A stretch of DNA of 64,000 nucleotides from a virus. Positions 19,015 to 25,564 of the stretch are shown here, piece after piece. Both the position numbers and the translations under genes were made by a program. The notes beneath the pieces were generated by a model. That model was not told the origin of the DNA. It was given only the letters and a program-made list of their open reading frames with translations, and ran no database searches. Position 1 is the first letter of the stretch; each line of letters starts with the position of its first letter. The stretch is from the UHGV virus genome UHGV-1455077; one strand, written 5' to 3'.

Positions 19015-19680
19015 ATGTATTACCTAATTTATAAAATAACTAATAATGTAAATAATAAAATCTATATTGGAAAACATCAAACGGAAAATAAAGATGATGA
19101 TTATATGGGTTCTGGAAAAATAATAAAAAGAGCTATTGAAAAATATGGTATAGATAAATTTACAAAAGAAATATTATATGAATGTAATTCATTAGAAGAA
19201 ATGAATGAAAAAGAAGCAGAAATTGTTGATGAAGAATTTGTTGTTCGTTTAGATACATATAATATTAAATTAGGTGGTCAAGGTGGATGGGATTATGTCC
19301 ATAAATATACTGATTGGAATGGATTTAAATATATAAATTCACAAAAGTTAAATAATAAATCGAATCAGTATAAAATATCTGCTGAAAAACTTAAAAATGA
19401 TGAAAAATATGCAAAAGAATTTTCTTTAAAAATTTCTAATGGATTAAAATTATATTACCAATTACATAATAATCCATTTAAAGGGAAAAAACATACAATT
19501 GAATCAAAAATAAAAATTGGTAAAGCAAATGCTATTAAACAAGCTGGTGAAGGAAATTCCAATTATGGAAAATGTTGGATTTATAATGAAGAATTAAAAG
19601 AAAATAAATCTATTAAAAAAGAAAATTTACAATCTTGGTTAGAGAAAGGTTGGAAAAAAGGGAGAAAAATGAAATTTTAA
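19015..19680 (+). CDS. GIY-YIG homing endonuclease (Seg/I-TevI-like)
   Basis: N-terminal YYLIYKITNNVNNKIYIGKH GIY-YIG motif with conserved Arg, Glu and Asn downstream. Confidence 0.75.
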   Translation: MYYLIYKITNNVNNKIYIGKHQTENKDDDYMGSGKIIKRAIEKYGIDKFTKEILYECNSLEEMNEKEAEIVDEEFVVRLDTYNIKLGGQGGWDYVHKYTDWNGFKYINSQKLNNKSNQYKISAEKLKNDEKYAKEFSLKISNGLKLYYQLHNNPFKGKKHTIESKIKIGKANAIKQAGEGNSNYGKCWIYNEELKENKSIKKENLQSWLEKGWKKGRKMKF

Positions 19681-21268: not shown

Positions 21269-21297
21269 TTGACATATGTTAATTATTATGATATATT
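21269..21297 (+). promoter_or_regulatory. sigma70-like promoter TTGACA-17-TATATT
   Basis: Consensus hexamers; precedes the structured non-coding region. Confidence 0.45.
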
Positions 21298-21299
21298 TA

Positions 21300-21880
21300 A
21301 TTATATTTTAATTTTAAGTAATATATTAAAATCATTTAATAATTGGTTGGCAAGACCAATAGGATGCCTTTTTAAGGCAATGAAAGTAAAATCTTTCTTT
21401 TAATATATGAAGATAAATTATGTCGTGAATGATTTAGTCGGAGAGATAAGCGACTAAGATAAAATAAAAAAATCTCAAATTCCATAGACGTATGGACGGC
21501 ATAATAAATTAAATTGTTGTAACTCAAACAATGGGTAGCCTGCCCATAAGAGTATGCTGGATAATCTGAAAAGATTTGAAGGTAGTTGTGAGTAATACGA
21601 ATCATAAGGTTGAAATAGCCACGGTTGGCTAACCGTGAGTGACGTAAGAACCAGACAAATCGTACAGATGAATAGGTCTGATGGCTGTATCTGGTTGGGA
21701 GTAGTCATTCTCCCCATCCATTAAGCAAAGGAGTAATTAACCTTTGTGGGTGTGACTGAATAATGTGTCGTATGAGGGGCTTGTTGGTAGTCAGGAGTCC
21801 AACCAATAATTTAATTTTAACAGTTTGTGGCAGTCGTTCTGTTTAAAAACTCTGCCTTTTTAAACAAACAGATAGTGATT
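21300..21880 (+). ncRNA. roughly 580-nt ORF-poor region with many stable hairpins; candidate large structured RNA of unassigned family
   Basis: Hairpins TAGTCGgagagataagCGACTA, ATGGGtagcctgCCCAT, CACGGTTggctAACCGTG, GGGAGtagtcattCTCCC, and CTGTTTAAAAA...TTTTTAAACAAACAG. GACTA and TAGTC elements could form a group-I-like P7 helix. Confidence 0.3.
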
Positions 21881-22095
21881 ATTAGATTTACATAGTTCGA
21901 TTCTATATTTTTTCATATAAAAAGGAAAAATGCCAAAAGGGTGGCGTTTACAATCTAATGAATTTTCTTCTGTTTATTTAAAAATTTTCGATAGTGAGTA
22001 TAAGATTTACATAGACCAGACTTTTAATCTGACATTTACAAAATCTTATAGATTGTTCTTCGAATTAATACTTTTTTGTGAATAGTGAGATATTA

Positions 22096-22170
22096 GGTTT
22101 ACATAGCTAAAGTGGTTAAAGCATTTGACTTGAAATCAAAGTATTGTAGGTTCGATTCCTACTGTAATTT
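22096..22170 (+). tRNA. tRNA-like, anticodon TGA (Ser codons) but type I (no long arm); one-nucleotide bulge in the 5' acceptor strand; preceded by the 25-nt motif
   Basis: GGTTTACA-TA-GCT...AGC-A-TTTGA-CTTGAAA-TCAAA-GTATT-GTAGG-TTCGATT-CCTAC-TGTAATT. Confidence 0.35.
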
Positions 22171-22244
22171 TAACTTAATAAAATGTTCTTTCACAAATTT
22201 AATTATTTGACACTTTATTATAAATGTTATATAAATAATAATAT

Positions 22245-22330
22245 GGAAGGTAACTGGCTGGATGAAGACACCGACTTGAAATCGGCTGGGCGTAACTGCT
22301 TTGGGGGTTCGAGTCCCTCACCTTCCGCCA
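22245..22330 (+). tRNA. tRNA-Ser(TGA), type II, CCA encoded
   Basis: Acceptor GGAAGGT/ACCTTCC; anticodon arm CCGA-CTTGAAA-TCGG; long variable arm; T-arm GGGGTTCGAGTCCCTC. Confidence 0.7.
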
Positions 22331-22337
22331 TTTTTAT

Positions 22338-23031
22338 TTGGTATTGTGGGATATGATAAAAGTAAGTAGAAAAGAATACGAAAATAATCCAGAAAAATAT
22401 ATTATATATTGTACAAAATGTAAAAAACCAATAATATTTAAAGATTATAGACATTATTGTGATAGAGTTAATAAAATTAATATTAGACATCATCAACCAT
22501 TTTGTTCAAAAGAATGCTCATATGAATATCATAGATTATTTACAAATAAAGGAATTTGTGATTTTTGTGGTAAAGAGTTTATTAGACAAAATGTTTATGG
22601 GGATAAAAGACAAAAACATACATTTTGTTCACAAAAATGTTCTGCAAAATATTTTAATAGTCATAAAAAATTTGGTTATAGAAAATCAAAAGCTGAAGAA
22701 TATATTGTAAGTCAATTAAAAAAAAGATTATCCGTATTTAAATATTAAAGAAAATGATGTATCAACAATAGGTAAAGAACTTGATATTTATTTACCAGAT
22801 TTAAATTTAGCATTTGAAATTAATGGTATAGTTCATTATAAACCTATATATGGAAAAGAAAAGTTAAATAAAATACAAAATAATGATTTTTTTAAAAAAG
22901 AATTATGTGAAAGTAAAAATATTTTATTGACAATAATTAATATAAGTGATATAAAAGTATTTAAAGAGAATTTAATTATAAATAAATATAATTACATTAA
23001 AGAAATTATAAGTAATACAATGCCACGATAG
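22338..23031 (+). pseudogene. frameshifted Zn-finger/Vsr-like endonuclease gene
   Basis: Frame 0 (22338-22748) encodes a Cys/His-rich domain. The +1 frame from an A-run at 22720 continues as ...GKELDIYLPDLNLAFEINGIVHY... (Vsr/PD-(D/E)xK-like) to 23031, ending inside tRNA-Thr. Confidence 0.4.
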
Positions 23032-23455: not shown

Positions 23456-23489
23456 TTGCTAACAAATATTTGGTGATAGTGATTAATTA

Positions 23490-23563
23490 GGTTTACATAG
23501 CTTAATGGTTAGAGCATTGATTTAACACATCAAACGTTACAGGTTCAACTCCTGTTGTAATTA
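23490..23563 (+). tRNA. tRNA-like, anticodon AAC, bulged 5' acceptor strand; preceded by the 25-nt motif
   Basis: GGTTTACA-TA-GCTT-AATGGTTA-GAGC...TTGAT-TTAACAC-ATCAA...ACAGG-TTCAACT-CCTGT-TGTAATT. Confidence 0.3.
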
Positions 23564-24277: not shown

Positions 24278-25564
24278 ATGAAAACAAATAAAGCTGAAAA
24301 GAAACCAGCAATTTACACTAATGAAGGTGGTAAAGCATCTCATATTAGTGATTTAGAAGAATTGAAAAGAGCAACAATGTCTTGTTTGCTTTGGGAAGAT
24401 AACTTCTATGAAGATGGTGTATCAATTGCTGACAGAATTACCTCTTTAGTTAAAAATTGTATTGATAAAGGTCATTATGATGATGTAATTGATATTTTGA
24501 AAACTGTAAAATTTGATATGAGATTACGTCATTGTCCATTGTGGATGATTGTTGCAATTTATAAAGCAGGTAAAACTATTGATAAGAATGTTATTGCATC
24601 TATTCTTACAAGACCAGATGATATGGGAGAATTACTTTCTCTTTATCGTAAAGACCAAGCAAATGCACCTATTCCAAATGCTATGAAAAAAGCTATGGCT
24701 ATTGCCATTACTAAATTTGATGAATATCAATTGGCTAAATGGAATCGTGATGCTAATTACAAATTGGTTGATATTGTAAACATTTGTCATCCACAAGTAA
24801 CTGAAGCTATTGATAAGTTGGTTAAAGGAACTTTAGAAACTCCAAAAACTTGGGAAGTTCTTCTTTCTGCCGCTGGTTCTGATAAAGAAAAGAAAAAAGA
24901 AGCTTGGTTGGATTTGATTGAAACTAATAAATTACCTGATATGGCTCTTTTGAAGAATATTCGTGGTATGTTGGATGTAGGTGTTTCTAAAAACACATTG
25001 GTTGACCGTATTAATAATATTAAAAATGGTAGATTATTGCCAATTGATTATATTAGAGCGGCAAATACAAATCCATCATTGGAAAATGAAATTGAAAAGA
25101 AATTCTTAAATTGCTTTGAAAAACCTTCTTTGAATGGTAAGACTGCAATTTTAGTAGATGTGTCAGGTTCTATGGATGGAGAAAGATTAAATTATGCAAA
25201 TGCATTAGCGATGATTGGTCGTGAAATGTGTGAAAATGTTGATATTTACTCATTCTCTAATGAAGTCAAATTCATTCCAAATCGTAGAGGATTTGCTTTA
25301 GCAGAAGCTATTGATAAATCACAATACCATAATGGAACTTATATGTGGGATGCTATTAGTACAGTTGAAAAAGCTCATTACGATAGATTAATTGTTATTA
25401 CTGATGAGCAAACAATGGGTATGCCACACAACGCAGTTATTAAAAATGCATACATTATTAATGTTGCACCATATAATAAAGGTGTTGGTTACAATAATGG
25501 TTACAAACATATTAATGGTTTTTCAGATAAAGTATTTAATTATATTACTGAAATTGAAAAATAA
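24278..25564 (+). CDS. Ro60/Rsr-like protein: TROVE-like N-terminal region plus C-terminal von Willebrand A domain with MIDAS motif
   Basis: N-terminus NEGGKASHISDLEELKRATMSCLLWEDNFYEDG resembles the Ro60 TROVE start (N.dGGy...L.RfL.fGsEggtYY). vWA domain ILVDVSGSMDG with downstream T and D residues. Confidence 0.45.
   Translation: MKTNKAEKKPAIYTNEGGKASHISDLEELKRATMSCLLWEDNFYEDGVSIADRITSLVKNCIDKGHYDDVIDILKTVKFDMRLRHCPLWMIVAIYKAGKTIDKNVIASILTRPDDMGELLSLYRKDQANAPIPNAMKKAMAIAITKFDEYQLAKWNRDANYKLVDIVNICHPQVTEAIDKLVKGTLETPKTWEVLLSAAGSDKEKKKEAWLDLIETNKLPDMALLKNIRGMLDVGVSKNTLVDRINNIKNGRLLPIDYIRAANTNPSLENEIEKKFLNCFEKPSLNGKTAILVDVSGSMDGERLNYANALAMIGREMCENVDIYSFSNEVKFIPNRRGFALAEAIDKSQYHNGTYMWDAISTVEKAHYDRLIVITDEQTMGMPHNAVIKNAYIINVAPYNKGVGYNNGYKHINGFSDKVFNYITEIEK

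Follow-up and report, generated by a model that had tools for sequence, protein, structure and literature searches.

Positions 21512 to 21807 on the + strand of the virus genome UHGV-1455077 probably constitute the gene for a non-coding RNA of approximately 296 nucleotides (nt) that, judging from comparative sequence analysis, acts in trans, assembles with copies of itself and belongs to the tRNA islands of phages. The gene lies in a region (21300–21880) of the window, by which we mean the whole 64,000-nt stretch of this genome that was analysed. An initial annotation had described this region as an approximately 580-nt unit, free of open reading frames (ORFs), that was a candidate large structured RNA or intron-like element. 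The core RNA represents a previously undescribed family of manA-type phage RNAs, larger than manA itself and likely self-assembling. Natural assemblies made only of RNA have been recognized only lately, with OLE, ROOL and GOLLD in 2025 and manA cages in a 2026 preprint. The RNA described here adds a well-supported family of about 300 nt, from the largest known gut phages, that is related to manA but differently built. A literature search for a structured RNA of Lak phages, or for a manA-like RNA of megaphages, found none.

Analysis by blastn groups the window with Prevotella Lak megaphages (540–550 kb), adjoining a 735-kb uncultured phage, and IMG/VR contig 3300045988_152892 (217 kb) is identical to the window over the region 21300–21880. 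When the region is aligned with its first partners, Lak-A1, Lak-B1, Lak-C1 and LR756501, only about 300 nt are conserved. Pattern scans that rested on an invariant UGAGUGACGUAAGAA block identified 17 loci in IMG/VR, mostly on contigs of 180–550 kb, along with 3 true loci in GTDB genomes and 50 in metagenome contigs. The 75 related loci (designated below by L numbers) derive from Lak-A/B/C megaphages, the 735-kb phage, and other viral and metagenome contigs. The match L023, which by eye is part of a coding gene, was discarded as a chance occurrence of the pattern.

A covariance model called R1, built from 36 sequences, detects one full-length copy of the RNA in each of the other loci, at 221–295 bits. 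In L033, a second, truncated tandem copy (1–99, − strand) lies about 120 nt from the full copy (217–511). By the measure of sequence conservation, 21512–21807 is the real functional unit and is narrower than 21300–21880. Thus, the ORF-free, structured character of the 580-nt stretch stands, but the evolutionarily conserved unit is only part of it. The GC content at 21500–21800 is 0.40–0.445, compared with a background of about 0.25. The components of the core are as follows.

21512–21807 (+): conserved RNA core of about 296 nt, scoring 279.5 bits with R1 and present as a single copy in the 64-kb window.
21520–21554 (+): stem A (UA-CUC/GAG-UA), an internal loop AAACAA/(U)AA and hairpin B (AUGGGU-AGCCU-GCCCAU); stem A is 94% and hairpin B 100% paired in the alignment of 53 sequences, with 10 of 11 pairs compensatory.
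21563–21576 (+): hairpin D (AAUCU-GAAA-AGAUU), with invariant CUGAAAAG and a GNRA tetraloop; 97.7% paired, 4 of 5 pairs compensatory.
21603–21611 (+): 5′ strands of two long-range helices, N (CAU) and M (GGUU), which flank the UAA of a UAA/GAAUAA loop; N is 100% and M 99% paired, with partners at 21754–21766.
21620–21637 (+): hairpin E (CACGGUU-GGCU-AACCGUG), whose loop centre (21627–21630) is self-complementary.
21638–21648 (+): junction AGUGACGUAAG, within UGAGUGACGUAAGAA; invariant in all sequences, although this invariance is partly imposed by the search patterns and is not independent evidence.
21649–21696 (+): helix F (AACCAGA/UCUGGUU), around CAAAUCG, a variable hairpin and CUGAUGGCUGUA; 99.7% paired, 5 of 7 pairs compensatory.
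21678–21682 (+): CUGAU, partner of the hairpin L loop (21790–21794); 92% paired.
21697–21714 (+): hairpin H (GGGAG-UAGUCAUU-CUCCC); 99% paired, 4 of 5 pairs compensatory.
21715–21752 (+): helix I (CAUCC/GGGUG) around hairpin J (GCAAAGG-AGUAAUUAA-CCUUUGU); I and J are 98–99% paired, with 12 of 12 pairs compensatory.
21754–21766 (+): GACU-GAAUA-AUG, the 3′ strands of M and N and the GAAUAA side of the loop; GUGACUGAAUAA at this position fits the manA consensus GUGaCUGAAUAA.
21783–21803 (+): hairpin L (GUUGG-UAGUCAGGAGU-CCAAC), with 5 base pairs (bp) and an 11-nt loop; 100% paired, 4 of 5 pairs compensatory.

Closure by helices N and M encloses hairpin E, the junction, helix F, hairpin H and helix I with J, and hairpin L follows N. 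Covariation among the aligned sequences shows that the core folds into at least 12 supported helices, which are arranged with two UAA/GAAUAA internal loops, a GAAA-capped hairpin and a multi-branched central domain. Specifically, RNAalifold predicts 55 pairs, 39 of which exhibit compensatory changes. With a manual model applied to an alignment of 36 sequences (A3), 91.5% of cells are paired, compared with 37–45% when the partners are slid, and double changes occur in 51 of 70 pairs; none of 500 shuffles reaches the observed values. A 69-pair model evaluated on 53 distinct sequences, in an alignment based on R1 (A4), yields 97.5% paired cells (33–45% when slid) and compensatory changes in 51 of 69 pairs. 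Helix M, for example, covaries between GGUU:GACU, ACCU:GGGU, AGCU:GGCU and AGGU:GCCU. This strong support bears out the earlier suggestion of a large structured RNA.

Some G·U pairs are invariant or alternating (UG 51/51, UG 50/50, GU 29/AU 15). Because such pairs make sense only on the + strand, the RNA is assigned to that strand. Several pairings that had been considered were left out of the model. A local AUC/GAU helix in domain F was dropped, as it has no compensatory changes and only 60–77% pairing, and the contact between the L loop and CUGA was put in its place. An outer extension of helix N (AUACG/CGUAU), which is plausible by eye in the window, Lak, LR756501 and L014, is only 42% paired in A3 and lies in a region of variable length. 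Neither the B loop nor GACU covaries consistently with the L loop, as judged by eye.

The region does not appear to encode a protein, as the initial annotation had also concluded. The ORFs of at least 30 amino acids (aa) that overlap 21300–21880 are a 44-aa TTG ORF on the + strand (21269–21403) and antisense ORFs of 77, 80, 30 and 33 aa; none exceeds 80 aa and none is conserved. A search of both strands among the homologs found no conserved reading frame that would point to a coding gene in related phages. Core lengths among the homologs range from 286 to 335 nt and are mostly not multiples of 3, and the minus-strand distance from stop to stop across the invariant block varies from 12 to 155 codons in all three frames of 48 distinct homologs. 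A minus-strand gene was rejected since no frame is kept; the tblastn matches of the antisense ORFs in 34 loci reflect nucleotide conservation. For the 581-nt stretch, the z-score of the minimum free energy relative to shuffled sequences is −4.1 on the + strand and −5.0 on the − strand.

Two of the hairpin loops exhibit a pattern expected of contacts between molecules. The centre of the E loop is GGCC in most sequences, is GUAC, GCGC or GAUC in separate lineages, and in others is GGCU or GGUC with a wobble pair, such that 22 of 23 variants are self-complementary. When its two middle nucleotides are scored as a pair, they are 99–100% complementary, with the types GC, CG, UA and AU. The centre of the J loop, UAAUUA at 21734–21739 in the window, is likewise self-complementary and varies among AAUU, CAUG, GAUC, AGCU, CGCG and GGCU. 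This palindrome occupies a fixed position in a 9-nt loop, with non-palindromic bases on both sides, and its two middle nucleotides are 100% complementary (AU 26, GC 24). Because neighbouring nucleotides cannot pair within one chain, the covariation of these middle nucleotides suggests an intermolecular contact. As judged from the aligned loops, both E and J are shown to be under selection for self-complementarity. Kretsch et al. interpreted the same kind of adjacent-nucleotide covariation, among GGCC, GAUC and AGCU, as intermolecular kissing in OLE L9.3 and GOLLD L21a, which was validated by cryo-electron microscopy (PMC12286853).

A third loop pairs with a different partner. UCAG in the L loop (21791–21794) covaries with CUGA (21678–21681), and other sequences carry UCAC:GUGA, UCAU:AUGA, UCCU:AGGA or UCCA:UGGA. 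The outer pair is CG in 29, AU in 4, GC in 2, UA in 1 and UG in 1, with 13 unpaired, and the next pair is UA in 47 and GC in 3. L025 has the variant UAAUCACUAGU as its L loop, compensated by GUGA. From the sequences, this pairing could occur within one molecule, as a pseudoknot, or between molecules, as a kissing contact.

The second alternative is suggested by a resemblance to manA. In a search with the core only, manA (RF01745) is the sole Rfam family matched (23.5 bits, E = 3 × 10^−4), and it is the only family that matches recurrently, at 16.5–26.3 bits in 12 homologs. In Lak-B, the manA model matches twice, over A to H and over J to L. The reverse search is consistent with these matches: of 50 true manA loci on marine viral contigs, about 35 are matched by R1 where the manA lies, with E values from 4 × 10^−4 to about 2. 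A blastn search of true manA against the phage collection returned only itself. The gathering score of manA is 55.2 bits, from which the window core falls about 30 bits short, whereas true manA scores 96.6 bits. On these comparisons the core RNA is treated as a distinct family related to manA rather than as a manA member, because its connectivity is permuted, P5 and P7 are lacking, hairpin E and the junction are new, and its score lies below the gathering threshold.

According to a July 2026 preprint, manA RNAs form RNA-only octamers, decamers and a pentamer-based 60-mer icosahedral cage (bioRxiv 10.64898/2026.07.01.735769). The pentamers are held together by L5–L7′ and L8–L9′ kissing loops and a GNRA–receptor contact (bioRxiv 10.64898/2026.07.01.735769). 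By analogy, the L:CUGA pairing of the core would correspond to the intermolecular L8–L9′ contact of manA. Sequences of manA inspected by eye exhibit the matching P8/P9 covariation (CAG:CUG, CAU:AUG and AAG:CUU).

These features suggest the following model. The window RNA would be transcribed from its own promoter (21269–21297) with a clade-specific 200-nt leader and would end at the hairpin and U tract at 21829–21861. The RNA of Lak-A/B/C, which lies between two tRNAs, would be co-transcribed and released by RNase P and RNase Z. The E and J loops would each kiss their counterpart in another molecule symmetrically via the self-complementary tetranucleotide, and the L loop would pair with the CUGA(U) of domain F, whether in its own molecule or, in the manner of manA L8–L9′, in a neighbouring one. 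One head-to-tail interface together with two two-fold interfaces would generate closed homo-oligomers rather than a monomer, and the assembled RNA would act in trans in the infected cell. The genomic company of the RNA, which includes tRNAs, transfer-messenger RNA (tmRNA) and a Ro60-like protein, points to a possible role in RNA metabolism or in the take-over of translation.

More tentatively, the RNA may serve as protomer for a closed natural assembly of a new kind, made of RNA only (a ring, dihedral particle or cage), in Prevotella and related hosts infected by megaphages. Of its three interfaces, L-loop:CUGA would be inherited from manA and E:E′ and J:J′ would be new. If this model is correct, manA and the core RNA would form a superfamily of self-assembling tRNA-island RNA genes rather than riboswitches. 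The two covarying self-complementary loops make oligomerization directly testable in vitro. For structural biologists the RNA represents a new protomer, and for phage biologists a marker gene that links gut megaphages, cyanophages and tRNA-island RNAs.

Several observations weigh against self-assembly, which is predicted from sequence. The E loop of L047, GGAU, is not self-complementary, nor is the J loop of the L014 clade, UGCU. Covariation in the E loop rests on few lineages, with GGCC predominating, and the outermost L:CUGA pair is mismatched in 13 of 50 distinct sequences, mainly Lak. Moreover, the percentages paired for nested helices are inflated, since alignment A4 was made to fit the nested structure; the loop and pseudoknot pairs were not fitted in A4, so this caveat does not touch them. 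The patterns used to find homologs fixed UGAGUGACGUAAGAA, and the diversity of the family is thus under-sampled. Finally, the similarity to manA is far below the gathering score, the modules are reordered and P5 and P7 are absent, and for these reasons the quaternary structure of manA is not simply transferable.

A trans-acting RNA that functions as a monomer seems unlikely. Such an RNA could, for instance, serve tRNA-processing enzymes, or a protein of the host or the phage, as a decoy or scaffold. In that event the palindromic loops would be sites for dimeric proteins, or incidental, and L:CUGA would be an ordinary pseudoknot. Covariation cannot separate intramolecular from intermolecular L:CUGA pairing, and the prevalence of GGCC in the E loop would also suit a monomer. 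However, the adjacent E and J loop nucleotides covary despite being unable to pair within one chain, and a site for a sequence-specific protein would not vary among five different palindromes. A candidate protein partner does exist: a 428-aa ORF (24278–25564, +), which lies 2.5 kb downstream of the RNA, carries a TROVE (Ro60-like) domain (63.6 bits) and a weak VWA domain, and homologs reside near the RNA in the close clade and again in the distant L024 and L058, at 26–28% identity. Yet screening up to about 5 kb from the RNA for a conserved protein partner yielded just two candidates, homing-endonuclease-like zinc-finger ORFs (13 loci) and TROVE (4 lineages); no protein family accompanies the RNA in all loci, and only the homing-endonuclease-like ORFs recur next to it across lineages. 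In addition, the related manA RNAs assemble without protein.

The zinc-finger family that forms the most recurrent neighbour (13 loci) was recognized as homing-endonuclease-like by eye. ORFs of the GIY-YIG/NUMOD3 and zf-FCS types are interspersed in the tRNA arrays, in the window at 19015–19680 and 22338–22748 (+). At L038 2080–2203, a match to the Y-RNA-like YrlA family scores 45.7 bits, below the gathering score of 69. A phage Ro60/Y-RNA system may share the tRNA island.

Our preferred reading, a self-assembling RNA that acts in trans, also draws on where its genes reside. tRNAs are present in the stored flanks of 62 of the 75 loci, within 300 nt of the RNA in 47 and within 100 nt in 27, and all 47 of the loci with a tRNA at no more than 300 nt have it on the strand of the RNA. 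This linkage is stronger than for manA, which has a same-strand tRNA within 300 nt in only 14 of 120 loci. In Lak-A/B/C, the core is positioned between two complete tRNAs, which in Lak-B are tRNA-Thr and tRNA-Met. A true manA of the cyanophage S-CREM1 (a Synechococcus phage; L076 1716–1930) lies flush between tRNA-Leu and tRNA-Asn. The occurrence of the core RNA in tRNA arrays, along with the cyanophage manA between tRNAs, suggests that these RNAs are trans-acting products of tRNA islands rather than cis-regulatory leaders.

This arrangement makes it very unlikely that the core is a cis-regulatory element or riboswitch for a downstream gene, which is how Rfam annotates manA. That RNA was proposed as a riboswitch candidate in 5′ untranslated regions (PMC2864571), and the fold of the core is complex enough for ligand binding. 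In the window, however, the RNA is followed by a hairpin and U tract and then by tRNA-like sequences, with no ORF. The RNAs of Lak-A/B/C have tRNAs on both sides, and downstream genes differ among loci. Since even the true manA of S-CREM1 sits between two tRNAs, the ‘cis-regulatory’ label on manA may be wrong. Among the marine manA copies (L077–L196), many follow a TGnTATAAT-like box and some are then followed by a hairpin and U tract.

Other loci illustrate the variety of these surroundings. The tRNA just upstream of the RNA in L001 (Lak-A1, about 2280–2400) carries an anticodon-loop insertion of approximately 95 nt that is absent from Lak-B1 and Lak-C1 and is itself tRNA-like (Rfam tRNA, 30.4 bits at L001 2309–2391). 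tRNAs with a CTA anticodon, called ‘tRNA-Pyl’ by ARAGORN and resembling amber suppressors, are located near the RNA in L018, L026, L033, L036, L041, L051, L054 and L064, which is consistent with TAG recoding in the phages. At L025 (3532–3824, −), on a contig of a Bacteroidales metagenome-assembled genome in GTDB with 46% GC, the RNA has no tRNA neighbours; downstream of it, on its own strand, come a 155-aa ORF and a 563-aa reverse transcriptase (RVT_1). Seven loci (L002, L010, L016, L019, L025, L027 and L046) have in common a GTTCTTTGAAA ... TAATTTG-like sequence 30–40 nt upstream of the core. We take this sequence to resemble the Bacteroidetes promoter type (TTTG/TAnnTTTG); the window clade has TTGACA/TATATT instead.

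The window itself is very AT-rich (about 25% GC) and contains 21 tRNAs according to ARAGORN, every one on the + strand, and 23 Rfam tRNA matches. Outside the core, the 580-nt stretch and its border carry the following elements.

21269–21297 (+): sigma70-like promoter, TTGACA-17 nt-TG-TATATT, with 11 of 12 matches, the best in the region.
21342–21401 (+): 5′ leader of three hairpins (21342–21360, 21366–21378 and 21382–21397) and a U tract, found only in the sub-clade of the window.
21433–21496 (+): leader insertion, with a possible H-type pseudoknot (21433–21476) and a hairpin (21481–21496).
21829–21861 (+): terminator-like GGCAG...CUGCC followed by UUUUU, at which termination is predicted from the sequence.

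The promoter, which had been noted at the outset, is kept in the close relatives L012, L045, L047, L053, L067 and L068, and the transcript is predicted to start near 21303. The same six loci carry the leader hairpins, which lie outside the widely conserved core; in L068, GAAAG/CUUUC of the third hairpin is changed to GCGUG/CUCGC. Whereas the promoter and a three-hairpin leader of about 110 nt are common to the window and its nearest clade, an extra 100-nt insertion occurs in the closest relatives only. This leader insertion (21433–21496) is confined to the window, L009, L030, L059, L067 and L068. Its possible pseudoknot combines AGUCG/CGACU and GAGAU/AUCUC with an A-rich linker, and both pseudoknot stems and the adjacent hairpin change compensatorily in L068. 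A weak match to Rfam 6A (21430–21484) scores 29 bits, compared with a gathering score of 41.2. The terminator-like element is kept in L012 and L068, with GGCAA/UUGCC as a compensatory change there; a terminator scan that allowed loops of at most 8 nt missed this longer-looped element. Probably, the 580-nt stretch is a primary transcript composed of leader, core and terminator.

Against this background, we regard a self-splicing group I (or other) intron, or a remnant of one that possibly disrupted a tRNA, as highly improbable. The size of the region, its GC enrichment and its many stems would be in keeping with an intron, as would the truncated tRNA-like motif at 21872–21906, and phages do carry group I introns. 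However, no intron model matches at E ≤ 10, no gene is interrupted, and the element is bordered not by exon halves but by complete tRNAs or by a promoter and a terminator. The covariation-supported helices lack both the P3–P9 arrangement and a P3/P7/P8 pseudoknot. The GACTA and TAGTC strings that had been proposed as a P7 helix are present but do not pair at long range; they are the arms of a local leader hairpin (21433–21458) or lie in the H and L loops. Similarly, the motif copy at the 3′ edge with its bare T-loop exists, but it is a separate, degenerate copy of a tRNA leader/5′-end motif and not the exon of a disrupted tRNA.

This copy (ATAGTGA..AGATTTACATAG then TTCGATTC, 21872–21906, +) is one of four in the window with the form ATAGTGA-N5-6-AGRTTTACATAG: 21872–21906, 21991–22015, 22082–22106 and 23476–23500 (+). 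The copies at 22082 and 23476 run into tRNA genes (22096 and 23491), the other two head degenerate tRNA-like remnants, and the motif is also kept after the RNA in L012, L022 and L068. Nearby, at 22245–22330 (+), a tRNA-like gene recognized by eye has a 7-bp acceptor stem, the anticodon UGA, a long variable arm and an encoded CCA. It was missed by ARAGORN and by the Rfam tRNA model, matches the tRNA-Sec model at 30.7 bits and is probably a class II tRNA-Ser. The ‘tRNA-Ser(tga)’ that ARAGORN reports at 22096–22171 lacks a long variable arm, and its acceptor stem is mismatched.

A divergent phage housekeeping RNA, such as RNase P RNA, tmRNA, signal recognition particle (SRP) RNA or 6S RNA, is just as hard to credit. 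In its favour, the RNA sits among tRNAs, a phage with more than 20 tRNAs could benefit from an RNase P of its own, and tmRNAs detected by ARAGORN directly adjoin the RNA in L031 (2622–2962) and lie a few hundred bases away in the same tRNA array in L071 (1251–1638). However, the core matches none of these RNAs in Rfam at E ≤ 10, lacks a tRNA-like end domain and does not form a long-range pseudoknot of the P4 type with a conserved GGAAAGUC-type block, and L031 and L071 already have separate tmRNAs. The initial annotation had proposed scanning for introns, RNase P, tmRNA and 6S RNA. None of these models, nor those for SRP, ROOL, GOLLD, OLE, HEARO and drum, matches at E ≤ 10, and at gathering thresholds Rfam detects only tRNAs in the whole window. 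That annotation could not identify the region by eye as RNase P RNA or tmRNA, and ARAGORN finds no tmRNA in the region. Resemblances to RNase P CR regions (UCAUAAGGU, GUGNNGUAAGA), a cobalamin B12 box (AGUCAGGAAUCC), a hammerhead CUGAUGA and box C/D were seen by eye and were set aside when no model matched.

The closest known relative of the core RNA is manA, and the alignments equate several of their modules. A/B corresponds to manA P3, D to P6, F to P8, H to P9 (by position), I to P2 and J to P1; N/M represents a second P3-like module and L a second P9-like module. Both RNAs have the UGAAUAA/UAA internal-loop module (P3), which the core carries twice, in A/B and N/M. They also have in common GUGACUGAAUAA after the GGGNG strand that follows a hairpin (manA P1–P2; core J–I), a GAAA-capped hairpin (P6; D), a long hairpin with CUGUA (P8; F) and a 5-bp hairpin with the loop UA..CAG.AAU, of 11 nt in hairpin L (P9; H and L). 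In each, the P9-type loop covaries with CUG(A) of the P8-type domain. Furthermore, some manA P1 loops carry the palindromes of the J loop (UGAUCA, UAGCU and CGUAAUUAA, the last in one manA variant).

The differences from manA are also pronounced. The core comprises approximately 296 nt rather than approximately 190 nt, and its GAAUAA and P9-like modules are duplicated. Its GGGUG strand (21748–21752) pairs with the upstream CAUCC (21715–21719), whereas GGGNG of manA pairs with the downstream CNCCC. Indeed, cmscan marks the manA P2 pairs as non-standard in the core, and the manA P2 that closes P3–P9 with a 5′ P1 is not encountered, the order being permuted. The UAA/GAAUAA module closes the central domain in the core but caps a hairpin in manA. 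Positions of the manA hairpins P5 (GUGGUG) and P7 (ACCA), and with them the L5–L7′ interface, are deleted in the cmscan alignments, and no GGUGGUG occurs in the aligned cores. Conversely, hairpin E and the invariant GAGUGACGUAAGAA junction of the core have no counterpart in manA. The core is found in Lak-type gut megaphages, unlike manA, whose range includes T4-like cyanophages, marine metagenomes and Photobacterium.

The resemblance to GOLLD and ROOL is functional and does not reflect homology. Like these RNAs of phages and prophages, the core is phage-encoded and resides near tRNA islands, and it has two loops with the palindrome covariation of adjacent nucleotides that marks symmetric kissing loops (PMC12286853). 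GOLLD and ROOL form RNA-only nanocages. The core RNA does not match RF01998 or RF03087 at E ≤ 10, has half to a third of the length of GOLLD and ROOL, and occurs in other hosts. Retroviruses provide a further parallel. The dimerization initiation site (DIS) of human immunodeficiency virus type 1 (HIV-1) and the GACG kissing hairpins of Moloney murine leukaemia virus (MoMuLV) homodimerize through a self-complementary loop that varies between palindromes. Those hairpins are elements of genomic RNAs that serve genome dimerization, unlike the core RNA, which probably constitutes an independent RNA gene.

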